Shown here piece by piece: positions 341 through 43,628 of a stretch of DNA of 64,000 nt. Each line of letters starts with the position of its first letter. The stretch's first letter is position 1. A model generated the notes under the pieces. That model was not told where the DNA came from. It ran no database searches and was given only the letters and a program-made list of their open reading frames with translations. The DNA comes from a virus, in IMG/VR virus record IMGVR_UViG_3300000295_000002, positions 19,700 through 83,699 of that record; one strand, written 5' to 3'. The position numbers were made by a program, and so were the translations under genes.

Positions 341-496
341 AAAACTCAACGACTTATCCCAAGCAGTTGAGAAAAAAATAAATTATTTAAGTAAAACAAA
401 ACACTTAAAAAGTGTCGATTCCAAATAAAGTACAACTACTTTCACAAGCTGTCATACAAGTATGAAAGATAATTAATAATTAAAAAATGTATTGAG

Positions 497-567
497 TAGT
501 TCCAGACTGAATCGAACAATCTCTAAGAGAACCAAAATCTCTTGTGCTACCGTTACACCATAGAACC
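497..567 (-). tRNA. tRNA-Gln (anticodon TTG)
   Basis: 71-nt cloverleaf on the minus strand: acceptor GGTTCTA/TGGAACT (two G-U pairs), D arm GTGT-AACGGTA-GCAC, anticodon arm AGAGA-TTTTGGT-TCTCT, T arm GATTG-TTCGATT-CAGTC. Confidence 0.8.
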
Positions 568-660
568 ATGAAGCATCATATTCTCACGAACTTGATGCTA
601 AGATTTAAAAAGCTAATTAAGCACTTTACCTTATAACCTTATAACCAAAAAAATGAGTGT

Positions 661-731
661 TGCAGAGTGCAGGATTCGAACCTGCGACCTCTAGGACATG
701 AAACTAGCGAGCTACCACTGCTCCAACCTGC
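661..731 (-). tRNA. tRNA with CAT anticodon (Met or lysidine-Ile), slightly atypical acceptor
   Basis: Minus strand: D arm GAGC-AGTGGTA-GCTC, anticodon arm CTAGT-TTCATGT-CCTAG, T arm GCAGG-TTCGAAT-CCTGC. The acceptor GCAGGTT/ACTCTGC pairs at 6 of 7 positions and the acceptor-to-D junction is short. Confidence 0.6.
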
Positions 732-864
732 GATTTGTGCAGCCTATCTTCACAGACAGACTGCATTGCCATCATTGTCAAATTCAAATTCAAATTTTGT
801 TAATTAAAATATAAACAAACAAGTAATCAAATAAAATATTTATGCAAAAACATTTAGAACTTTG

Positions 865-954
865 GAGATATTGTCGGATTCGAACCAACACTTCCATACG
901 ATAAGAACGGTATCTTCAAGTTGTATGACGTGCTTCCGTTTACACTAAATATCT
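865..954 (-). tRNA. non-canonical tRNA-like gene (enlarged anticodon region, isotype undetermined)
   Basis: Minus strand: acceptor AGATATT/AATATCT, D arm GTGT-AAACGGAA-GCAC, T arm GTTGG-TTCGAAT-CCGAC. The anticodon position is a 6-bp stem (TCATAC/GTATGG) enclosing 23 nt (AACTTGAA plus hairpin GATA-CCGTTCT-TATC). Confidence 0.5.
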
Positions 955-1109
955 CTTTGTTGTTATTTAATTAAAGTATTGAGAAGTAATCTCTACTTTA
1001 AGTAGTGTTTAAGTCTCATTCTTTGACTTAACTCTGTTCAGAGTTAGCTAGACTTCTATATTCGTAATAAACGTTGTACTATCTAATAATAATAATAATT
1101 GAAAATTTG

Positions 1110-1209
1110 TGCAGGGAGGCGGAATCGAACCGCCACTATCTCACACGATAAGAAGAGGTATTATCTATTGTGCGAGGTGTGCAAGAATACCACTTACACC
1201 ATACCCTGC
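1110..1209 (-). tRNA. non-canonical tRNA-like gene (enlarged D loop and anticodon region)
   Basis: Minus strand: acceptor GCAGGGT/TCCCTGC, D arm GTGTA-AGTGGTATTCT-TGCAC, T arm GGCGG-TTCGATT-CCGCC. The anticodon position is a 7-bp stem (CTCGCAC/GTGTGAG) enclosing 23 nt (AATA plus hairpin GATAA-TACCTCTTC-TTATC). About 100 nt. Confidence 0.5.
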
Positions 1210-1644
1210 TGTTTTATGTACCTAAAACCATGGAACTTTCTGTCGTTTGTGAATGCCACGATATTAATCGTTTCCGTATTCCCGATACAGCTAGCATTGA
1301 CGTTCCGTATGACACTCCATACATATTATAAATATCTTACACGTAAGATGGCAATAATACATACTTCGACTAGAATACTACATAGCAAACGATACAGACC
1401 TATATTATGCCCTTTGCTTGTGCTGATGTTTCAGCATAGTTCATCGGTATAGTCTATGTAATATCTGTTACTGACTAGTTTTTCGTATGTCGTGCGTCCT
1501 TTTCGCCAGGTCACGGCATCCATTGATGCTCTCCGGCTACTTCTTTTCCACGCATACTATATTCTGTGCGTCAATATGTCAAAGAACTCTTCTCTAGCTT
1601 TCAGTTTCATCACTTATAGTGATAATCTGATTCTAAAAGAATTG

Positions 1645-1718
1645 CGGTTTCAGCAGGATTCGAACCTACGACCTATCGGTTAACAGCCGACCGCTCTAAC
1701 CATCTGAGCTATGAAACC
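1645..1718 (-). tRNA. tRNA-Asn (anticodon GTT)
   Basis: Canonical 74-nt cloverleaf: acceptor GGTTTCA/TGAAACC, D arm GCTC-AGATGGTTA-GAGC, anticodon arm GTCGG-CTGTTAA-CCGAT, T arm GTAGG-TTCGAAT-CCTGC. Confidence 0.9.
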
Positions 1719-3374: not shown

Positions 3375-4541
3375 ATGAAGGTTTACGTTGAAGACAAGAC
3401 ATATAAGGTGTATTTCTCCATCACTCATAAGTGTAAGAGATTCTATATATACACAGGATTGCAATCGACAGAGAAGTTTGATGGTATGGTATTTCCTCGT
3501 TCAGACAAGTCTGCAAAGGCAAAAACTAAGCGACTGGCAGAGCTATATTCAAGCGTGGAAGACTATATACTGCTGCACAAGGGTGAGGACGTTCCGATGC
3601 TAAAAAGCCATCTGAAAGAGATTATAAAGGGTGGCAAGGTAGCTGAGAAGAATTTCCTCGACTATATGCAGATGTGTGCAGATTTCAAGAATTTGAAAGC
3701 TGGCACGAAGAGAGTATATGATGTGACCATCATCAGAATTAGAAATTTTGATGCTAAGTGTACATTTGATACCATCACTAGAGACTGGCTCGATAAGTTT
3801 GTGAAGCATGAATATGAAAGAGGACGGATGCCTAACGGAGTTCATATTGATTTGAGAAATATCAAGGCAACATTCAATTGGGCAATTGATAATGAGATAA
3901 CAACCCTATTCCCATTCCGTAAGTACGTACTTCCACATGAGGAAACAAGAAAGCGTTGTTTATCTCTAGAACAGATGAGACAGTTGCGTGATGCAGAGTT
4001 CCACACTAACCCTCAACGTGAATCAAGGGATTTGTTCATGCTAGGTTTCTATTTGATTGGTATCAATATATCAGACCTTCTCGATTTGAAGCAAACAGAC
4101 CTTCGTGGTGGCAGAATATGCTACAAGCGCAACAAGACGGGACGATTGTATGATATAAAGGTAGAACCAGAGGCGTTGGAGATTATAAAGCGATACAAAG
4201 GAAATAAATACCTTTTAAAGTATAAGGACAGCAGTAAGTTCAACCTCAAACACTTTGAGAGCAATTTGAATTTCAGACTTAAAAGGTTAGGTAAATTCAG
4301 AGAATATAGTAAAGAACCGATGTTCCCTTATCTTTCCACCTACTATAATCGCCATACGTGGGCAACGCTAGCAAGCGAGATTGATATACCGATGGAAGTT
4401 ATAGGCAGGGCATTAGGTCATGCGATGTGGGATAATGCGGTAACATCAACCTACATTAAATATGATACAAAGAAGATTGATGAAGCCAACAGAAAGGTTA
4501 TTGATTACCTTAACAAAGATTTAGAAGATACAGATTTATAA
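3375..4541 (+). CDS. int: tyrosine recombinase / phage integrase
   Basis: ORF 3339..4541, with a likely start at MKVYVED (3375). The C-terminal catalytic region has R..HTWATLA, LGH and a terminal Y (TSTYIKY), typical of Bacteroidota phage integrases. Confidence 0.9.
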   Translation: MKVYVEDKTYKVYFSITHKCKRFYIYTGLQSTEKFDGMVFPRSDKSAKAKTKRLAELYSSVEDYILLHKGEDVPMLKSHLKEIIKGGKVAEKNFLDYMQMCADFKNLKAGTKRVYDVTIIRIRNFDAKCTFDTITRDWLDKFVKHEYERGRMPNGVHIDLRNIKATFNWAIDNEITTLFPFRKYVLPHEETRKRCLSLEQMRQLRDAEFHTNPQRESRDLFMLGFYLIGINISDLLDLKQTDLRGGRICYKRNKTGRLYDIKVEPEALEIIKRYKGNKYLLKYKDSSKFNLKHFESNLNFRLKRLGKFREYSKEPMFPYLSTYYNRHTWATLASEIDIPMEVIGRALGHAMWDNAVTSTYIKYDTKKIDEANRKVIDYLNKDLEDTDL

Positions 4542-4889: not shown

Positions 4890-5346
4890 TATTTTTCTTT
4901 TTAATTTCTTCCTCCATTTTATGTAAGCGTTCAACCTCTTGCTCATAGATGTTGTCAATCGCGTCAGAATACTTTAGGTATTGTGTAAGGCTCTTCTTGC
5001 GCTGCATAAACTCAGCCTTATTCTTATACTTCATACCTTGTAATGCGGTCAGTCTGTGACGCTGCATTTCAAGTTGCAGCTCATCGCAAAACCACACCAT
5101 ATTCTGCACAGCTTTTTTCTCCTTACTCTGTATTTCCCTTGAGAGGTTAACAAGAGCTTTGTATCTTCTGTTCTCCACGCTTATTATCAGTTTGAATATT
5201 ACCCAACTGAATACGAATGCAATCCAAACAAATGCAACACCAAAATTGCCAATACAAGCGTAGAATATTGCAAACGTAACACCCAATAACATTTCTGCAT
5301 AGTAAATATCGAACCATCCGAAACGCTTCTTAATCATTTTCTTCAT
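4834..5346 (-). CDS. membrane protein (two predicted TM helices) with coiled-coil tail
   Basis: ORF 4834..5505. Start taken at MKKMIKKRFGW (5346), next to the stop of 5330..6253. Hydrophobic stretches LLGVTFAIFYACIGNFGVAFVWIAFVFSWVIF. Confidence 0.55.
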   Translation of the reverse strand: MKKMIKKRFGWFDIYYAEMLLGVTFAIFYACIGNFGVAFVWIAFVFSWVIFKLIISVENRRYKALVNLSREIQSKEKKAVQNMVWFCDELQLEMQRHRLTALQGMKYKNKAEFMQRKKSLTQYLKYSDAIDNIYEQEVERLHKMEEEIKKKNNDGKDKGNDSETETAKSE

Positions 5347-6253
5347 GTCTTTTGTTTGATAAATTATTGTTGAGACGAATATAGAAATCCTCATCACTCT
5401 CTCCATTCTGCTTAAAGCTAAGATTGTTCTCTTCGATAAAGTCAAGAATAATCCATATACTCTTTTTGCCGAGATTCCTAATCTTATCCAAATCAGACTT
5501 ACCATGGAATTTGCGGAGTAAATCGCCTACGGTATATACGTCGCACCATCTGAACATATTCAGAATACGAACAGGAAAGCCACAGTCGTTTACATCTTTA
5601 CCAAGTATTAATGGTGGAAGTATCGTTCCACCGATAGGAGTATCACCTTTTGCACGTCTGTATTCATCATAACTAGCTTGTGTTGCTTTTAGTTTCTTCT
5701 TTAAACCATCAATCACGATTCTCAAATCTTGATTTGTAGCAATCTCGGCAATGGCGGCATCCTCGTTGTACGTCAGCTTATTGCACGTCTTCTCTACAAT
5801 CTGTCTGATTCTAGTTGCTGATACGCCATACTTGAGTGACAACTCATCATAGGTCATTCCGTTAATTATGTCCTTTAGCAACTTAGATTCACGATAACTG
5901 AGTTTTGGAGTGATGCCAAGATACGACATAGCGTTTATTACGCCAAAAAGCATACCAACAGCGTTGGCAGCCAGTTTGCCGTTTGCGGTTGCTCTGTTTC
6001 TCAACTCGGTAAGTTCAACGTTTATTGCACGCTTGTGCGCTTCAACTTCTTTGAGCTTATCATCTATCATCTTTTCGTTGGCTGCAAGCATCTTGTACTT
6101 CTGGGCGTATTTTTCAACGTCCTCGCTGTTTACATACAAGATACCATGCTCGCCTACACAACTACCAATGAGACCTTGCTCGATGTAGTTACTAATAGTC
6201 TGTCTAGATAAGCCAAGTATCTCGGCAGCTTTGTTTCTTGTGATTCTAGCCAT
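5330..6253 (-). CDS. multi-HTH DNA-binding protein (Xis/MerR-like N-term, LuxR/sigma-70 region-4-like middle, RpoA alpha-CTD-like C-term)
   Basis: N-term ITRNKAAEILGLSRQTISNYIEQG. Middle LSYRESKLLKDIINGMTYDELSLKYGVSATRIRQIVEK. C-term FPVRILNMFRWCDVYTVGDLL...IRNLGKKSIWIILDFI, a helix-hairpin-helix as in the RNAP alpha CTD. Confidence 0.7.
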   Translation of the reverse strand: MARITRNKAAEILGLSRQTISNYIEQGLIGSCVGEHGILYVNSEDVEKYAQKYKMLAANEKMIDDKLKEVEAHKRAINVELTELRNRATANGKLAANAVGMLFGVINAMSYLGITPKLSYRESKLLKDIINGMTYDELSLKYGVSATRIRQIVEKTCNKLTYNEDAAIAEIATNQDLRIVIDGLKKKLKATQASYDEYRRAKGDTPIGGTILPPLILGKDVNDCGFPVRILNMFRWCDVYTVGDLLRKFHGKSDLDKIRNLGKKSIWIILDFIEENNLSFKQNGESDEDFYIRLNNNLSNKRHEEND

Positions 6254-10264: not shown

Positions 10265-10843
10265 TTACCAATCATTATTTGTGTCTTTGGTATTACCTAA
10301 TCCTAATAATGTTTTGTATATACTATTTATCCTCTGTTCTGCATAATGCTTCCAGATAACACGATTTCCTTTTAATCTACCTTTCTTATCAAAGAAATCA
10401 GATAATATATTCTCTGCGGTTTTTGTACGATTGATTGTTTCCGATTGCCCTGTTTGCATTCCGAATGAAGGCGCATTTATTTTAACTCGTCCGTCTTTTA
10501 TTTCAATTAAAAGGTTATATGTTCCTTCATAAAAGAACTTAATACCAAGGTATGACTTTTGGTAAAGAATATCGTCTGCAAAAGCATGAATGGCTACCGA
10601 TGAGTTATCCACGGTACTCATTATACTTTGTGGCGAGTTATATACCTTTGATACATTAGAGCAAATCAAAGTATATATATCCTTTGCGGATTTTCCATCG
10701 AACTGATAAATAATATAGTCTTTGCCATCAGCAGCACGATAGTGACCATCGGCAGATATTGTAAAACCATTAAATTCTGCTTGTGCATTTGCTTGCACGA
10801 CAACGGCAATCATAATTGCCATAAGCATTAAAATCTTTTTCAT
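10265..10843 (-). CDS. secreted protein (DUF4468-like, recalled from memory)
   Basis: N-terminal signal peptide MKKILMLMAIMIAVVVQANAQ. Beta-rich body (YEGTYNLLIEIKDGRVKINAP). Confidence 0.6.
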   Translation of the reverse strand: MKKILMLMAIMIAVVVQANAQAEFNGFTISADGHYRAADGKDYIIYQFDGKSAKDIYTLICSNVSKVYNSPQSIMSTVDNSSVAIHAFADDILYQKSYLGIKFFYEGTYNLLIEIKDGRVKINAPSFGMQTGQSETINRTKTAENILSDFFDKKGRLKGNRVIWKHYAEQRINSIYKTLLGLGNTKDTNNDW

Positions 10844-10852
10844 TTATAGTGA

Positions 10853-10877
10853 CTTAACCGTGATGTCGAGGGCTGAA
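10853..10877 (-). repeat. conserved intercistronic repeat, copy 1
   Basis: cttaaccgtgatgtcgagggctgaa. Fills the spacer between 10843 and 10891. Confidence 0.7.
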
Positions 10878-10890
10878 GGGTTGTTTTACA

Positions 10891-11199
10891 TCAGATTTCC
10901 GTTGCTTTTATCGTGTAGACGAATTTTAAAAGACCATGAGGGTTGTATTGGATAAGTCTTACCGACACTGCGGTCTCATCAGCGAGGAAGGCAATAGCTT
11001 CTCCTGCAACGGTCTTCTGTATCTCAAGACTACCATCGGGGTTCAATATTTCTTTTGCCTTTTTCATGTCACTTGCAACAATCAGACCTGTTTCGCTAAG
11101 GATGCCTCTCTCAATAGCGTTCTTCAGTTCTTCGATACTGTTGTTATTGAAATTTTCCTTTGCAACAACCCGGTTGAATTTAATATTAGTTGTTATCAT
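10891..11199 (-). CDS. hypothetical protein
   Basis: 102-aa ORF bounded on both sides by the conserved repeat. Confidence 0.6.
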   Translation of the reverse strand: MITTNIKFNRVVAKENFNNNSIEELKNAIERGILSETGLIVASDMKKAKEILNPDGSLEIQKTVAGEAIAFLADETAVSVRLIQYNPHGLLKFVYTIKATEI

Positions 11200-11206
11200 A
11201 AGATTG

Positions 11207-11232
11207 CTTTGACCGTGATAGCGAGGGCTGAA
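11207..11232 (-). repeat. conserved intercistronic repeat, copy 2
   Basis: ctttgaccgtgatagcgagggctgaa. Fills the spacer between 11199 and 11236. Confidence 0.7.
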
Positions 11233-11235
11233 TAA

Positions 11236-11547
11236 TTAATCTGTTACTGCAATAAACTCAAATTCATCTTCAATCACATCATTCTTCCAATAAATAGCCT
11301 TAACTTCATTTAAGGTCTTATTCCAATCATCAACAGAGAAAATAAACTCTATGATTTCGTTATTTTTCTCCATTTCATCATTGATGTATGAGATAGACCA
11401 TTCATTGCTATCTACTTCATTGATGCAAAACGCTTTCTCGCTTGCCTTGCTCAACTGTTCAAGGTCACTTGAAATAGTGAATGTCAAACTTTTCTTTTTT
11501 CCGATTATCGGAGAATTATCTTTGCGTTTAATTTTGATTTTCTTCAT
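11236..11547 (-). CDS. hypothetical protein
   Basis: ORF 11236..11661, with the start at MKKIKIKRKD (11547), just after repeat copy 3. Confidence 0.6.
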   Translation of the reverse strand: MKKIKIKRKDNSPIIGKKKSLTFTISSDLEQLSKASEKAFCINEVDSNEWSISYINDEMEKNNEIIEFIFSVDDWNKTLNEVKAIYWKNDVIEDEFEFIAVTD

Positions 11548-11556
11548 AATTGATGG

Positions 11557-11581
11557 CTTAACCGTGATGGCGAGGGCTAAA
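11557..11581 (-). repeat. conserved intercistronic repeat, copy 3
   Basis: cttaaccgtgatggcgagggctaaa. Fills the spacer between 11547 and 11592. Confidence 0.7.
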
Positions 11582-11591
11582 TGATTTTTTA

Positions 11592-11828
11592 TTAAGAGAT
11601 TGTGCCATCGTGAGCAACAACAATATTTCTGCTTTTGATAATATCGTCTGTTAGTTGACAACCATCATAGAATCCGTTACCAACTCTTACTCTTTCGTCT
11701 CTTTCAATGAAGAAACGTTTATTTAGCTTTCCGTATTGCTTCTCTAACTTCTCGATAGATTTTTTCATTTTGCTTGAAATCTTCAAGCCATCTACCTCGA
11801 AAATTACTTCACTATTAAACTCTTTCAT
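11592..11828 (-). CDS. hypothetical protein
   Basis: 78-aa ORF bounded by repeat copies 3 and 4. Confidence 0.6.
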   Translation of the reverse strand: MKEFNSEVIFEVDGLKISSKMKKSIEKLEKQYGKLNKRFFIERDERVRVGNGFYDGCQLTDDIIKSRNIVVAHDGTIS

Positions 11829-11838
11829 AACTTATTCG

Positions 11839-11863
11839 CTTATCCGTGCTGCGTAGGGCTGTT
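11839..11863 (-). repeat. conserved intercistronic repeat, copy 4 (diverged)
   Basis: cttatccgtgctgcgtagggctgtt. Same register upstream of the ATG at 11828. Confidence 0.5.
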
Positions 11864-12015
11864 TGATATTTATATTATTTTCAAAAGATAACGCTATATT
11901 CGTCATTATATTGTGTGTAGGGCAGAAAAATTAATCTTTATTTCTGCCCATGGCGCAATCGAACAATGTGCCGATTAGCCAAATTGCTATTAAGAATGCC
12001 ATAACTTTTTCCGTT

Positions 12016-12387
12016 TTATGAGTAAATACCAATCTTATGAAACTCCAACGTTGTGTGGTTATAAGGGTAACTACAATCCTCGAACATAACCCAATAACCC
12101 TGCTTGTCTAAAAATATCTGACCAATCGAGCTTATAAAGTCTTTTTGCTCGCCTGCCAATCTATTGTATATTACCTTAGTCAAGTTTTTATAAGGTTGAT
12201 GTTGTTCGTCTATGATACGGAAAGAATATATATTCTTATCTCTTCCAGTAATCGTCAGTGTGGTTATTAAACCTTCAATCGTTCCGACTCTCTTGTACGT
12301 ATCACCCTTGCACACCAAAGACTCGCCATTATCAAACAATCGTCTTGCAAGAAATGTTGTTGTATTGTTACAAATAATCTCCGACAT
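12016..12387 (-). CDS. hypothetical protein
   Basis: 123-aa ORF. Its start is 3 nt after the recombinase stop. Confidence 0.6.
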   Translation of the reverse strand: MSEIICNNTTTFLARRLFDNGESLVCKGDTYKRVGTIEGLITTLTITGRDKNIYSFRIIDEQHQPYKNLTKVIYNRLAGEQKDFISSIGQIFLDKQGYWVMFEDCSYPYNHTTLEFHKIGIYS

Positions 12388-12389
12388 AA

Positions 12390-13451
12390 TTATTCCTCCT
12401 CTGTATTATTGTTGTTGTTATTCAGTTCCTTGTAATACTGCTGAATCTCCTCATCAGTCATACCCTTTTCTCGCATTACACGATAGTTTGCAGAACCACG
12501 TCTGAAATAAACCTGACTGCCATAGACTGAGCGTAGATTGTAATACGCACTTCTTACTAGTTCTTTGGTTAATACCTTGCCAGTGGACGAATAAACACCC
12601 ATCTGCTGCAACATCATAGCTGCATCGGCAAAGTTAGGTGTAGTCAATTCAGTGAAGTCATTGGTACACTTCTTAACCACATTCCATATAGCTTTGTTGC
12701 AAGGTTTCTCAGCAGCCTCTTTCTTGCGCTTTTCCGATGCCGCCTTCTGTGCGTTTGATAAATCGCATTTTCTAGGTCTGCCCAACTTCTTTACGACCTT
12801 ACCTGACTTTGAGATAAATTCTCCGTCTTTTGCCAACTTCTGTTTGCGTACTTCCAATGCGCTCTGTGTTCGTTCCTGTATGAGTTCACGCTCCATCTGT
12901 GCCGAAAATGAGAATGCGAATAGTAGCATTTCGTCAATCGCTTTCAGATGGCTACAATCAAGGTCAATGCCCATCTGAACGATAACCAAGCGCACGCCAC
13001 GTGGTTTCAGTTCGTCATTTACAAACTTGTTGATGTCGCTCATAGAACGACCGATACGGCTGACCTCTGACACGATAAGTATATCACCTTTATCAAGCAT
13101 CGGTAGCACTACCTTACCAAGGTTTCTATCCTTATAAGATACCTTACCCGATACTCCTTCCTCCTTCACTTCGTGAGTAGCTTTGAGATTGTGACAATTC
13201 AACCATTCGTTGATTGTTCTTTCTTGCTGCTCCAATGTCTGCTTTTCAGTAGAGACACGACTGTATATTATTACTTTCTGCTTTGGCTCATCATCATCGG
13301 TCATGTTTGCCTTTGCGTTGCAGCTTTTGTCAGAACGGCAAAGGTAGTGACCTTCTGTCATCATGCAATAAGGGCAATCCTTACAGCCGATGTTCACGAT
13401 GTCGTATTTTACAGATGCGCCACCTTCATTCTTGATTTCTATTGTCTTCAT
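12390..13451 (-). CDS. serine recombinase (resolvase/invertase family) with Cys-rich N-terminal extension
   Basis: Catalytic core KVIIYSRVSTEKQTLEQQ ... VSEVSRIGRS ... QMERELIQERTQ. The N-terminal ~55 aa carry CKDCPYC...C...C. The basic C-terminal tail has no obvious classical HTH. Confidence 0.85.
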   Translation of the reverse strand: MKTIEIKNEGGASVKYDIVNIGCKDCPYCMMTEGHYLCRSDKSCNAKANMTDDDEPKQKVIIYSRVSTEKQTLEQQERTINEWLNCHNLKATHEVKEEGVSGKVSYKDRNLGKVVLPMLDKGDILIVSEVSRIGRSMSDINKFVNDELKPRGVRLVIVQMGIDLDCSHLKAIDEMLLFAFSFSAQMERELIQERTQSALEVRKQKLAKDGEFISKSGKVVKKLGRPRKCDLSNAQKAASEKRKKEAAEKPCNKAIWNVVKKCTNDFTELTTPNFADAAMMLQQMGVYSSTGKVLTKELVRSAYYNLRSVYGSQVYFRRGSANYRVMREKGMTDEEIQQYYKELNNNNNNTEEE

Positions 13452-13463
13452 TTCTCCTATCTC

Positions 13464-13697
13464 CTATCCTATCTTTGTTAGCAAATCATACTCTTTTTGG
13501 TTATAGCAAGATGCAAGATAATCGTGATTGGTTATTAAATCATACGCAAATTCTATCTGTATATCGGTTAATGTTGCAGATACAACATAATCGTCAAACC
13601 AAATATTACTCTGAATTACGTCATAGACAACTCCAATACACTCCAAATATTTAATGAGTATATTTCTTGCAGTTGTAACAAAATACACTTTCTTCAT
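13464..13697 (-). CDS. hypothetical protein
   Basis: 77-aa ORF preceded by GGAGATAGGAGAA, an SD-like sequence. Confidence 0.55.
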   Translation of the reverse strand: MKKVYFVTTARNILIKYLECIGVVYDVIQSNIWFDDYVVSATLTDIQIEFAYDLITNHDYLASCYNQKEYDLLTKIG

Positions 13698-13748
13698 TTC
13701 TCCTATCTCCTATCTCTTATTACTTAAAACGTTACTTTCTGTTATTTA

Positions 13749-19685: not shown

Positions 19686-20033
19686 TTACTTCTTTTCTCC
19701 TAATTCTCTTTTTGCCAATTCATTTGTAGTTTCCCATTCCACATAGTCCCAACTTGTACCGAAATGGTCTACACAAAGAATATATTTATCCAATAAGTCC
19801 GAATAAGTGAAAAGCAAGCCAAATGTCTTTTCCAGATACTCTACATCGTCATAGGTGCAATCTGTAATAAACCACTGATAAATGTCTTTTTGTGTGCCGT
19901 CTTCTTCATCGAACAGTTCAAAGCGCATATTATCATAAATAGATGGGTCTATCTCTGTAATATTGTTGCAGAGGATAAGCGCATTATTACACCAATTTAC
20001 AGCTACAGAATAATTTGTTTTATAAGTCTTCAT
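19686..20033 (-). CDS. acidic hypothetical protein
   Basis: 115-aa ORF rich in D/E and aromatic residues. Confidence 0.6.
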   Translation of the reverse strand: MKTYKTNYSVAVNWCNNALILCNNITEIDPSIYDNMRFELFDEEDGTQKDIYQWFITDCTYDDVEYLEKTFGLLFTYSDLLDKYILCVDHFGTSWDYVEWETTNELAKRELGEKK

Positions 20034-40970: not shown

Positions 40971-43628
40971 ATGAACACGAATAAAGATATAGAAATCAGA
41001 CCACAAGAGGGCTTTCAAATGTCCTTTGCAAGTAGTAATGTCGATGTGGTTTTCGGTGGTGGAAATCTTGGAGGGGGCAAGCTACAGCCGCTTGATTCCA
41101 AGATACTTACACCATCGGGATGGCAGACTATGGGCGATATGCAAGTTGGTTCTAAGGTGATGACTCCATTTGATGGAATTGCCACCGTGATTGCTGTATT
41201 TCCACAAGGCGTGAAAGATGTGTATGAACTTACAACGCTAGATGGACGAAAGTGTGAATGCGGTCTTGAACATCTATGGACGGTACGAACTCCAAAGCAA
41301 GTGCATAAGTATCGTTCTCATAATAAGGAATGGGGATGGACTATGACTTTGCAGACAAAAGACCTTATTGATGGGTTGGAGCAAGGAAAGAAATACTTCA
41401 TCCCAAACAACAAAGCTATAGAGTTTGGTGAAAAAGAACTGCCAATACCGCCATACGTATTAGGTGTTATGCTCGGTGATGGATGCCTAACTATTTGGCG
41501 TAACGAGAAAGGTTTTAAAATTTCCAATACAGAATGGGATATAATAAATAAGGTAGCTAAATTGACGGACACAACAAGGGTGTACGAGCAACCAAGCTGC
41601 GTTACTAAATTGTTCTATACACCACACTATAAGGAGTATAAGGAATATTTAAGAGAAGAATGTTTGTTGGATTATTCCTACAACAAGTTTATTCCTGAAA
41701 AATATCTTCACTCTAGCATTGAACAAAGAAAGCAATTGCTAGCAGGTTTATTTGATACCGATGGAAGTGTAGAACCTTACGATAATAGTTATAGCTTCTC
41801 TACGACAAGTGTAAGGCTTAAAGATACATTTATTGAGCTGTGTCGTAGTCTTGGATATACATGTTCTTGCAGAGAAGACAGAAGAGAAAAATATACGAAA
41901 GGTGTTGCTTACGACATAGTAATACGCACCGACGATATTATATTCACAAGCGAGAAGCATAAGGCTAGATACAATAATGAGCGGAACAAAACAAGAAAGT
42001 ACGCTAAAGGCAACGACCATTCACGGATTGTGTCTATCAAAAAGGTAAGAAGAGCCGAGTGCCAGTGTATTTTGGTTGATGATGAAAAGCATTTGTATAT
42101 CACGGATGATTACATTACAACCCACAACTCGTATGGTCTTGTACTTGCGATGGCAGAGCCGTTAATGACTGACCCAGATTTTCGCGCAATGATTTCACGC
42201 CGTTCACTTGGTAATCAAAAAGCAGGTGGAGGATTCGTAGAGAAGTTCAAACAGATATTCGGAGCTGATTTCGTGAAAATCAGAGAGAGCGAGAATCCGC
42301 GCGTTACATTTCCGAATGGAACGTTTGTCGATTTGACGTATCTTGACGATTCCAATATGGATAAGTTGAGAGAGCGCGCGAAAGGATGGGAGTACGATTT
42401 GATTGCGATTGACGAGTTGACGGAGATGACTTGGGAAGTTTTCTCATACGTCATGACTCGAAACAGAGGTCAGAGCAAGACGTTTACAGGTAAGTTCTTT
42501 GCAACACTTAACCCGAAGCGTAGCCACTGGACGAGAATATTTCTTGATTGGTATATTGGCTCAGATGGTTTTATCATCCCAGAGCGTGATGGTGTAGTCA
42601 GATACTTCTATTGTGCAGGACCGACTGTTAAGGATGTTGTTTGGGGAATGTCTAAGCGAGAAGTCTATGAAAAATGTAAGATAGATATAGATAGAAAGCT
42701 TAAAACCATTGGCGGCAACTTTGGATATGAAGTAATGATTAAGAGTTTTGTTTTCTATCAAGGTAAACTTGGTTCAAACAAGAAGATGCTTGAAAACAAC
42801 TCTGGCTATTTAGGTTCTGTAGCGGCATCGGGAGGTAGGATGGCACAAGCTCTTATGGAGGGTAACTTCAATGTTGACCCAGAAGAGGAAGAGGATATTC
42901 CGATTCCTAGCCAAGCGGCAAGAGATTGCTTCGTAAAAGACCCTGCTGTGAATGGTGACAAGTGGATAACAATCGACTTGGCAGACTACGGTAAGGATAA
43001 CACTCTGATGTTGTCATGGAACGGATTCCATATAGTCAATTACGAAATCGTGATGCATTCAACACCGCGAATTAATGCGGAAAGAGCTAGATTATTCGCG
43101 GCGAGTGAGGGAGTGGCAGAAAGCCATATTATCTATGATGCTACGGCAGGTAGGTATTTCAATGACTATATACCAGATGCTATCCCTTATATATCAGCAG
43201 CAAAGGCAATGGGAATTTATTATTTGTCTGCTATGACAATAAAAGACCTATGTTACTTGCGACTGAGCTACATGATTAAGCGAGGACAGCTTACATTCTC
43301 TGATAAGGTTGCGAATGCGGTTTATACGCATCAAAACCTCAAATACAGAGTTTCCATACAGAATGAGTTCATGGAAGAATGCGCGGTAGTTCGCTTTGAT
43401 AAGATGCAGAGTGGAAAGAAGAAGTTGCAGAGCAAGAAGGAAATGAACCGAAATCTTGGAAAAGACCGTTCTATGGATTTGCTCGACCCTTGCGCAATGA
43501 GAATGTACCCATGTTTGAATATGGAGTATGGTAGCGAGCTACAAGAAGGGTTCAGACTCGCAGCACAAGAAGTTGAAGAGAAAAATCCTAATGCTCAGAG
43601 CATTTATGATGATACGTTGTACTATTAA
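40971..43628 (+). CDS. terL: terminase large subunit, interrupted by an intein
   Basis: Walker A FGGGNLGGGK is followed after the intein by SYGLVLAM. Walker B-like DLIAIDELTEM. C-terminal nuclease-like region. 885 aa as the precursor, 536 aa without the intein. Confidence 0.9.
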   Translation: MNTNKDIEIRPQEGFQMSFASSNVDVVFGGGNLGGGKLQPLDSKILTPSGWQTMGDMQVGSKVMTPFDGIATVIAVFPQGVKDVYELTTLDGRKCECGLEHLWTVRTPKQVHKYRSHNKEWGWTMTLQTKDLIDGLEQGKKYFIPNNKAIEFGEKELPIPPYVLGVMLGDGCLTIWRNEKGFKISNTEWDIINKVAKLTDTTRVYEQPSCVTKLFYTPHYKEYKEYLREECLLDYSYNKFIPEKYLHSSIEQRKQLLAGLFDTDGSVEPYDNSYSFSTTSVRLKDTFIELCRSLGYTCSCREDRREKYTKGVAYDIVIRTDDIIFTSEKHKARYNNERNKTRKYAKGNDHSRIVSIKKVRRAECQCILVDDEKHLYITDDYITTHNSYGLVLAMAEPLMTDPDFRAMISRRSLGNQKAGGGFVEKFKQIFGADFVKIRESENPRVTFPNGTFVDLTYLDDSNMDKLRERAKGWEYDLIAIDELTEMTWEVFSYVMTRNRGQSKTFTGKFFATLNPKRSHWTRIFLDWYIGSDGFIIPERDGVVRYFYCAGPTVKDVVWGMSKREVYEKCKIDIDRKLKTIGGNFGYEVMIKSFVFYQGKLGSNKKMLENNSGYLGSVAASGGRMAQALMEGNFNVDPEEEEDIPIPSQAARDCFVKDPAVNGDKWITIDLADYGKDNTLMLSWNGFHIVNYEIVMHSTPRINAERARLFAASEGVAESHIIYDATAGRYFNDYIPDAIPYISAAKAMGIYYLSAMTIKDLCYLRLSYMIKRGQLTFSDKVANAVYTHQNLKYRVSIQNEFMEECAVVRFDKMQSGKKKLQSKKEMNRNLGKDRSMDLLDPCAMRMYPCLNMEYGSELQEGFRLAAQEVEEKNPNAQSIYDDTLYY
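41082..42128 (+). mobile_element. intein (349 aa) with LAGLIDADG homing endonuclease
   Basis: Hint N-block LQPLDSKILTPSGW, block B GLEHLW, LAGLIDADG motifs YVLGVMLGDGCL and LLAGLFDTDGSV, C-terminal CQCILVDDEKHLYITDDYITTHN followed by Ser (+1). Confidence 0.85.

Follow-up and report, generated by a model that had tools for sequence, protein, structure and literature searches.

A covarying 25-nt motif at the starts of accessory genes in temperate phages of Prevotellaceae: a candidate portable mRNA leader and boundary of exchangeable gene cassettes

The DNA analysed here is a 64-kb window (64,000 nucleotides (nt); positions 19,700 to 83,699 of the IMG/VR virus record IMGVR_UViG_3300000295_000002) that, judged from its gene content, belongs to a temperate tailed phage or prophage. 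It carries four copies of a 25-nt motif, M1 to M4, each placed just before the start codon of one of four consecutive minus-strand genes. Read in the sense of these genes, the array begins with M1 (11839..11863; AGCCCTACGCAGCACGGATAAGCGA; stem CGC/GCG), which ends 5 nt before the ATG at 11828 of cassette gene 1 (78 amino acids (aa), cluster c198, 11592..11828). It continues with M2 (11557..11581; AGCCCTCGCCATCACGGTTAAGCCA; stem GCC/GCC, with a C-C mismatch in the middle pair) and cassette gene 2 (103 aa, cluster c56, 11236..11547), M3 (11208..11232; AGCCCTCGCTATCACGGTCAAAGCA; stem GCT/AGC) and cassette gene 3 (102 aa, cluster c40, 10891..11199), and ends with M4 (10853..10877; AGCCCTCGACATCACGGTTAAGTCA; stem GAC/GTC, the commonest version) and cassette gene 4 (192 aa, DUF4468, with a signal-peptide-like N-terminus, 10265..10843), all motifs and genes being on the minus strand. 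The layout in gene sense is AGCCCT-N-(3 nt)-A-N-CACGG-N-N-AA-(3 nt)-A, in which positions 8-10 pair with positions 22-24 to form a 3-bp stem that covaries across the copies. All four copies are in the sense of the genes, and the ATG follows 5-6 nt past the motif end.

The pattern proposed for this repeat by a first-pass annotation of the window matches three times (10853-10877, 11208-11232 and 11557-11581) and not at all in shuffled windows, and a relaxed core, CCGTGMTRNSNAGGGCT, also recovers the diverged copy (11844-11860, within 11839-11863). The four same-orientation copies that the annotation described are thus recovered, one start coordinate being corrected from 11207 to 11208, and the intergenic gaps (47, 36 and 44 nt) and unit lengths (~355, 349 and 282 bp) bear out the intergenic placement and regular spacing it reported. 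A covariance model built from 149 copies of other phages gives M1 to M4 scores of 39.2, 42.4, 44.2 and 48.4 bits (39-48 bits) and the next best window site 9.8 bits; repeat scan and covariance model agree on exactly four copies in 64 kb. As only four of the ~86 open reading frames (ORFs) callable in the window carry the motif, it is not the generic ribosome-binding context of this phage, a possibility that the annotation had wanted checked and that we rejected; the non-motif genes have a different and simpler signature, as described below. The four ORFs (78, 103, 102 and 192 aa) each belong to a separate protein cluster, in agreement with the earlier statement that they are unrelated and did not arise by gene duplication. 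Among the array genes and the nearby recombinase gene, Pfam recognises only DUF4468 in the 192-aa ORF (E = 7.6e-5) and a resolvase domain in the ORF at 12390-13451 (E = 3e-27), confirming both earlier assignments. Rfam release 15 yielded no credible match to the window: the four weak ones (E = 1.2-7.5, far below gathering scores) are to unrelated eukaryotic or archaeal families, one of which, DPB at 11813-11895 on the plus strand, overlaps M1. In the library of papers that was searched, none has the motif sequence.

The motif is widespread. A scan of viral contigs returned at least 120 loci, of which seven GC-rich matches were set aside as chance, and an iterated weight-matrix scan of the remaining 113 listed loci together with the window collected 199 copies (149 distinct 32-mers), compared with none in shuffles. 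Its carriers comprise more than 100 viral contigs, Prevotellaceae chromosomes and one 4.6-kb circular replicon. In a scan of one genome per species, the commonest variant was found in 19 contigs, most of them from Prevotellaceae (Segatella copri, Prevotella spp., Leyella and Prevotellamassilia), and the chromosome of S. copri HDE04 contains a five-copy array (L121). Among the 199 copies, those of one locus all share one orientation, that of the downstream gene; the motif ends 4-7 nt before an ATG in 182, whereas the upstream stop codon may be as close as 6 nt or more than 140 nt away. When the pattern was loosened to collect 270 copies, the stem ended 6-8 nt before the ATG in 235 of them. The downstream ORFs are small (median 100 aa), and 185 motif-preceded genes form 74 unrelated protein clusters, families tending to have the motif either nearly always or never. 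Across these 74 families the adjacent spacer and flanks vary while the distance to the ATG stays constant. When 70 family representatives were searched, only four weak Pfam matches and seven PHROG families were obtained, all without functional description. Strongly acidic proteins make up 53% of the motif families vs 20% of other small families (P = 8e-6), a composition that would fit the profile expected of DNA-mimic, anti-defence or host-takeover proteins. The cutoff for this class is a net charge below -0.05 per residue; several cassette proteins have poly-D/E tails, and a few resemble lipoproteins in having a signal peptide and a Cys.

The stem changes in sequence and keeps its pairing. 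In a first alignment, 93% of the stem cells pair, with 95 double changes vs 22 in shuffles, and sliding the stem structures by 1-3 columns lowers pairing to 32% or less. When copies were selected without regard to the stem, 469 of 480 stem cells are Watson-Crick. Because the first sample had been seeded with one stem type, the test was repeated on an independent, stem-agnostic scan of viral contigs. In its 87 new loci, 23 matches without an ATG served as an internal control for 63 matches with an ATG at the usual distance: the latter are 95% Watson-Crick and comprise eight stem types, compared with 39% for the ATG-less chance matches (Fisher P = 1e-20). Longer stems of 4-5 bp also occur (CCGC/GCGG, TCGC/GCGA, GCGC/GCGC and AGCGC/GCGCT). 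As in structured cis-regulatory RNAs generally, a helix with compensatory changes is present, and this short one is the only helix supported. An alternative helix suggested by the folding program, AGCC/GGUU, was discarded, as positions 18-19 vary without keeping pairs. Predicted minimum free energies of -2 to -4 kcal/mol are reached by shuffles as well, the stem is not followed by a U-run, and folding predictions leave the entire start region open and unstructured. A pairing that is selected yet not self-sufficient points to a bound state. Stem types are not evenly distributed within arrays: CGC/GCG is found in 50 of 69 first-of-array copies vs 38 of 137 inner copies (P = 1e-9), and the first copies have the strongest stems, CGC/GCG or CCGC/GCGG. 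Identical stem pairs within arrays are fewer than expected (65 vs 83, P = 0.003), though not among adjacent pairs (P = 0.17), a diversity that is largely owed to the first-copy subtype. Rare chimeric stems exist elsewhere (CGC/GTC, GAC/GCG and GAC/GCC) and look like the products of crossovers inside the loop; the GCC/GCC stem of M2 in the window likewise looks like a chimera of two stem types.

The sequences around the motif suggest that it lies within transcripts. In S. copri, most primary start sites are reported to have a TAnnTTTG -7 box, and a consensus ribosome-binding site is absent (bioRxiv 10.1101/2024.04.05.588293). Within 80 nt upstream of the motif, TAnnTTTG is found at 12 of 69 first-of-array copies vs 5 of 127 inner copies (P = 0.003); the distance from box to motif is 20-50 nt, the boxes precede mainly first copies, and neither TAnnTTTG nor sigma-70 hexamers were found within the motif itself. 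The earlier judgement that the motif is not a promoter is thereby borne out. Because host-type boxes lie upstream, the motif should be transcribed, most plausibly within 5' untranslated regions (UTRs) and intercistronic spacers, and from these boxes and the fixed ATG spacing we infer that it is transcribed in sense and acts on the downstream gene. The 4.6-kb circular replicon presents this order in its simplest form: TACCTTTG, 21 nt, the motif (stem AAC/GTT), 6 nt and the ATG of a 72-aa ORF. This replicon (MT135448.1; L227, 1880-2165) is labelled Microvirus sp. (unverified, porcine) and has a single motif copy; its ORFs are of 205, 329, 72, 186 and 458 aa, with no obvious large capsid-size ORF among them.

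Non-motif genes of the same phages show a peak of A at -13/-12, and only 10% of them are Shine-Dalgarno (SD)-like. Motif genes have an invariant AA at -12/-11, and GGAG, GAGG or AGGA within -20 to -4 in only 4 of 149 cases; the motif thus lacks the purine-rich GGAGG-like core, 5-10 nt before the start codon and complementary to the 16S 3' tail, that defines an SD sequence, and no duplex with 16S rRNA is favoured. In Flavobacterium johnsoniae (PMC6847099), adenines from -14 to -11, especially at -12 and -13, raise translation, and a location close to ribosomal protein S1 has been predicted for this segment of the mRNA. It is with this A-tract that the invariant AA coincides in position. Homologues of the 103-aa cassette gene 2 (cluster c56) in three other loci (L023, L097 and L082) are preceded by ATAGGAGATA-N5-ATG, an SD-like leader located exactly where the motif sits, so that the motif and the SD-like leader appear to behave as interchangeable start modules.

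Gene content varies at the motif. Nine loci whose recombinase is 97-99% identical to that of the window have different sets of one to four motif-preceded genes behind it, drawn from a common gene pool and placed between conserved flanks. When 178 distinct motif contexts were compared pairwise to map junctions, 65 pairs alike only upstream mostly ceased to be similar between motif positions 18 and 29, 44 of them within 25-27, and 67 of 79 pairs alike only downstream did so at positions 0 to -5. In comparisons of the window with other phages, homology blocks start and stop at all four copies. Homology with relatives of the same recombinase lineage stops at M1, and the M1-gene-M2 unit is 91% identical to that of a phage with a tyrosine-recombinase backbone (L016). 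The M2-gene-M3 unit is common to two loci (L061 and L058; block starts 11580/11578, ends 11213/11209). The M3-gene-M4 unit is common to five phages of the other lineage (L041, L016, L064, L037 and L033; starts 11233-11251) at 97-98% DNA identity, its c40 protein being 99-100% identical on an unrelated backbone, and the c40 cassette blocks end at 10836-10850. Two further blocks (L038 and L040) start at 10877/10885, only ~40 nt past M4 being shared. The first-pass annotation had offered two explanations, cassette boundaries and a translational or RNA-processing element. The former is upheld by the differing gene sets of close relatives and the homology junctions inside the motif; for the latter, the gene-sense orientation, the 4-7 nt to the ATG, the stem covariation and the upstream promoter boxes argue for an element acting on translation or otherwise at the RNA level. 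Both alternatives find support in the comparative data, and they fit together.

The phage encodes two recombinases, a tyrosine integrase (3375-4541, plus strand) and the serine recombinase (12390-13451, minus strand); the latter is given as context, with no role on the motif implied. Among the 55 loci with enough upstream sequence, 25 have a co-oriented serine or tyrosine recombinase gene no more than 2 kb before the first copy, and 30 have none. A second lineage has its array behind a Phage_integrase-family gene and a 140-aa gene, and in a third, the genes upstream of the arrays have, by eye, no recombinase look. A recombinase is therefore not an obligatory neighbour, and the link to the serine recombinase implied by the earlier annotation is weak. 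Sites of the res, hix or gix type consist of two inverted 12-bp half-sites around a central dinucleotide, and the motif instead has a 3-4 bp dyad around an asymmetric invariant loop. The exchange seems to proceed by homologous rather than site-specific recombination.

Based on the observed anatomy, ATG spacing, stem covariation, exchange junctions and upstream promoter-box matches, we propose, with confidence slightly better than even, that the motif is a portable mRNA leader, that is, a self-contained translation-initiation module of the accessory genes of Prevotellaceae temperate phages. Transcribed as part of a 5' UTR or an intercistronic spacer, it would present AGCCCU and, next to it, a hairpin of 3-4 bp whose 11-nt loop is A-N-CACGG-N-N-AA, and the 3' AA of the loop, at about -13 to -11, would serve as the initiation-favouring A-tract of SD-poor Bacteroidota. 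Because the hairpin is too weak alone and many of its bases are invariant, a conserved trans-acting partner probably reads it and would set or gate ribosome loading alike on every cassette gene. The partner is probably encoded by the host, as the small (30S) ribosomal subunit or an RNA-binding protein, rather than by the phage, since the motif is near-identical on divergent phage backbones and on the 4.6-kb replicon; its occurrence in many unrelated phages and mobile cassettes suggests the same, and a domain scan of 67 further window ORFs, which detected no RNA polymerase, RNase or RNA-binding domain, also favours a host-encoded reader. As to the direction of the effect, a context-independent enhancer or insulator of initiation is our tentative choice, held with less than even confidence, and is ranked above a repressor operator, which we consider rather unlikely. 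As all cassettes share the same 25 nt, the motif would also be the physical boundary of exchangeable cassettes, and recombination between copies of different phages or prophages would swap, add or delete whole genes.

Several observations weigh against this proposal. Action on RNA and an effect on translation are deduced from the position of the motif, and a 3-4 bp stem is energetically negligible. G-U and A-C cells are equally rare in the stem-agnostic set (four each), and thus the pairing pattern is silent on which strand folds and on whether it does so as RNA or single-stranded DNA; the asymmetry between the two, considered as a strand indicator, is uninformative. A purely translational role leaves unexplained both the recombinase just upstream in 25 of 55 loci and the distinct subtype of the first copies. 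Members of motif-associated families lack the motif in 59 of 261 cases, and it is therefore an add-on that these genes do not require. No antisense partner for the motif was found in the window, and in duplex tests with 55 Prevotella 16S genes, the best duplex (-26 kcal/mol, 16S nt 37-62) was within the shuffle range and the site was inconsistent, other stem variants picking other 16S sites.

The last result bears on the alternative that the motif is an enhancer that recruits the 30S subunit by base pairing with 16S rRNA, in place of an SD sequence. A host phylum that uses SD pairing little would suit this mechanism, and the commonest variant can form the duplex just mentioned; however, its energy is at z = -2.0 relative to shuffles, other variants are at z of +0.2 to -1.8 and at different sites, and a covarying stem would break any fixed rRNA pairing. 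Moreover, the paired 16S region sits in helices of the 5' domain in the established secondary structure, and we regard this mechanism as highly unlikely. A supposed likeness of the loop to the helix 43 / CGGUGAA region, which does not hold as a contiguous match in Prevotella 16S, was dropped without a formal significance test. Even less credible is that an RNA polymerase of the phage or an alternative sigma factor uses the motif as its promoter. A conserved motif of ~25 nt before many genes is reminiscent of T7-like phages, and one window protein has a Sigma70_r4 match, but no RNA polymerase was found in the window scans, for which reason a phage polymerase promoter was rejected; host-type boxes sit upstream of the motif, a double-stranded DNA promoter leaves the stem covariation unexplained, and a transcription start 0-7 nt from the ATG would produce near-leaderless mRNAs at variable offsets. 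Very unlikely, too, is that the motif is an expression-neutral recombination scar or selfish homology arm with an ATG spacing inherited rather than selected. The coincidence of junctions with the motif and the family members that lack it would be explained, but the same spacing is kept across 74 unrelated families while spacer and flanks vary, compensatory stem changes require selection on pairing, and the orientation is strictly that of the gene.

Processing or stabilization of the RNA, also proposed in the first-pass annotation, is a stronger competitor, although we still hold it to be improbable. An endoribonuclease of host or phage might cut the polycistronic transcript at each copy or beside it, or the hairpin might cap the 5' end, and each cassette would become a separate mRNA with a uniform short leader, as at the RNase III sites between T7 early genes. 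The location between genes of tandem arrays and in 5' UTRs, the covarying hairpin and the strong CGC/GCG or CCGC/GCGG stems of first-of-array copies are all consistent with this. On the other hand, processing alone needs neither the 4-7 nt to the ATG nor the AA on the -13/-11 A-tract, no nuclease domain was found in the window, and in size the hairpin falls far short of known RNase III or Cas6-type substrates; processing is also compatible with the portable leader and hard to tell apart from it. A site-specific recombination site like the integron attC, whose folded strand would be read by the neighbouring recombinase to excise or insert single-gene cassettes and whose first copy would take the role of attI, has a low probability in our estimation. 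Direct repeats that flank single-gene cassettes, junctions inside the repeat, nearly identical cassettes on unrelated backbones, a first copy of distinct subtype, pairing kept while the stem sequence changes and, in 25 of 55 loci, a co-oriented recombinase gene (serine or tyrosine by lineage) no more than 2 kb upstream would all be expected of it. Nevertheless, 30 of 55 loci have no nearby recombinase, the 4.6-kb replicon has its single copy behind an ordinary promoter, and one site for two unrelated recombinase families is not expected. Dyad-symmetric half-sites are absent, the stem is 3-4 bp compared with attC sites of 57-141 bp, the GTTRRRY-like GTTAAGT of the commonest variant is lost in the common variants GGATAA, GGTCAA and GGTGAA, and the fixed ATG distance in 74 families needs a role in expression anyway. 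Homologous recombination over the shared 25 nt seems the simpler account. Because the recombinase position, the first copy and the cassettes resemble those of integrons, we keep as a minority possibility, and just as improbable, that the motif doubles as leader RNA and folded-strand recombination site of a phage-borne, integron-like platform for capturing and expressing single-gene cassettes, served by the serine or tyrosine recombinase at the array head, with the first copy as insertion site and cassettes that are probably anti-defence.

Upstream of the array in the window, a conserved 123-aa ORF (12016-12387, minus strand) adjoins the serine recombinase gene and is described as context only. 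Between it and M1 is an array leader (11864..12015, minus strand) with a 23-aa ORF, MAFLIAIWLIGTLFDCAMGRNKD, at about 11930-12000 and a 9-bp hairpin, GGGCAGAAA..TTTCTGCCC, at 11920-11949, both 95-100% conserved in ten related loci, followed by an AT-rich stretch with a near-match to TAnnTTTG, TTATCTTTTG, which may function as a promoter. In the tyrosine-recombinase lineage (L001, L033-L037, L041, L064, L074, L079 and L110), three conserved elements are found ~90 nt before the first motif: a hairpin that resembles a terminator and has a T-run, the hairpin GGAGCUUCGGCUCC with its UUCG loop, and TGCAATTAATAACCA. Together they may form a structured leader or else a separate small RNA. A 24-nt identical repeat, GATAGGAGATAGGAGAAATGAAGA, occurs at 13441-13472 and 13687-13718, in the start regions of two adjacent minus-strand genes, the serine recombinase gene and a 77-aa ORF. 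It is strongly SD-like, unlike the starts of these phages in general, of which only ~10% have SD-like sequences, and it is related to ATAGGAGATA, the leader of the c56 homologues; it may be a second portable start module.

Further observations concern the phage as a whole. Genes for tRNA-Gln, tRNA-Met and tRNA-Asn (496-1718, minus strand) adjoin the tyrosine integrase gene, and the left end of the window is therefore probably a prophage-host junction. To the right of the integrase are genes for a tape-measure protein, a major head protein, a portal and a large terminase. The large subunit of this terminase (885 aa, 40971-43628, plus strand) has LAGLIDADG_3 and Hom_end matches at residues 241-327, between the ATPase part and the nuclease part, which suggests an intein or homing-endonuclease insert. 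A 307-aa protein (5330-6253, minus strand) combines matches to HTH_17, Sigma70 region 4 and an RNA polymerase alpha C-terminal domain-like segment, an unusual architecture for a regulator; in both phage lineages it is conserved at a few kb downstream of the arrays. No close phage relatives were found in GenBank for the 4-kb region; the nearest GenBank relatives of the phage are Parabacteroides phages, with 29% amino-acid identity on the terminase.

Start-codon choice in the absence of SD sequences is poorly understood in Bacteroidota and their phages, and the motif is a compact element that recurs in at least 74 gene families across many backbones. For Prevotella and Segatella, in which engineering is difficult, it could develop into a portable expression part. 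It also flags the accessory-gene islands of abundant human-gut prophages, and searching with it brings up hundreds of small proteins, mostly acidic and with no assigned function. Finally, it offers a sequence-level account of phage mosaicism, in which exchange takes place exactly at a shared 25-nt module.

Features of the motif are shared with several known systems. In T7, the early genes are separated by RNase III sites, long double-stranded hairpins whose distance to the ATG is not fixed. Both are conserved structured elements between consecutive small genes of one transcript, but the stem of the motif is only 3-4 bp. The targets of T4 RegA, the coat-protein hairpins of MS2 and PP7 and the Com site of Mu are translational operators, weak hairpins near start codons that are read by proteins. 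The motif resembles them as a small sequence-specific element at a fixed distance from the start codon, common to several genes as in the RegA regulon; it differs in that the binding protein is known there, and in that the motif is common to many unrelated phages and mobile cassettes. The attC sites of integrons are imperfect inverted repeats (R''-L'' / L'-R') of 57-141 bp with a GTTRRRY core, lie 3' of their ORF and are served by a dedicated tyrosine integrase. Arrays of single-gene cassettes split by a repeated site, pairing kept through sequence change, a recombinase gene that often heads the array and a distinct first site are common to both systems. In contrast, the motif has 25 nt, lacks the size and inverted repeats of attC and a core of the GTTRRRY kind kept in all variants, is tied to the start codon of the next gene and is often without a recombinase. 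Integron exchange takes place at a defined bond, and the present data place the homology junctions only within the 25 nt. The neighbouring enzymes also differ from IntI, being a serine enzyme in the window, of the Phage_integrase family elsewhere and absent in 30 of 55 loci, in a comparison made outside the IntI-specific extra domain.

Start regions of Bacteroidota genes have a signature of A at -3, -6, -12 and -13 (Baez et al. 2019, PMC6847099). The AA and A/T-rich spacer of the motif reproduce this signature, which is that of the non-motif genes, whereas AGCCCU, CACGG and the stem are no part of it and mark ~5% of the genes of this phage. The closest known system is that of the PeSL (promoter-early stem-loop) cassettes of T4-type phages, in which a repeated motif lies between small non-essential genes (PMC2839356; Comeau et al. 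2014, PMC4122927) and recombination between its copies explains insertions, deletions and replacements (Arbiol et al. 2010, PMC2839356). PeSLs consist of a sigma-70-like promoter and a terminator stem-loop and act on transcription, whereas the motif contains neither a strong early promoter nor a stable terminator stem-loop, lies downstream of promoters at 4-7 nt from the ATG, and combines a stem of 3-4 bp with a conserved loop of 11 nt; its carriers are temperate phages of Bacteroidota rather than T4-like myoviruses. Both are short conserved motifs between small genes of variable regions with no function assigned to those genes, and in both, recombination between copies explains how genes are gained, lost and replaced. 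If the proposed role in translation is correct, the motif takes the PeSL idea beyond T4-like phages, into a different phylum and onto a different regulatory layer.

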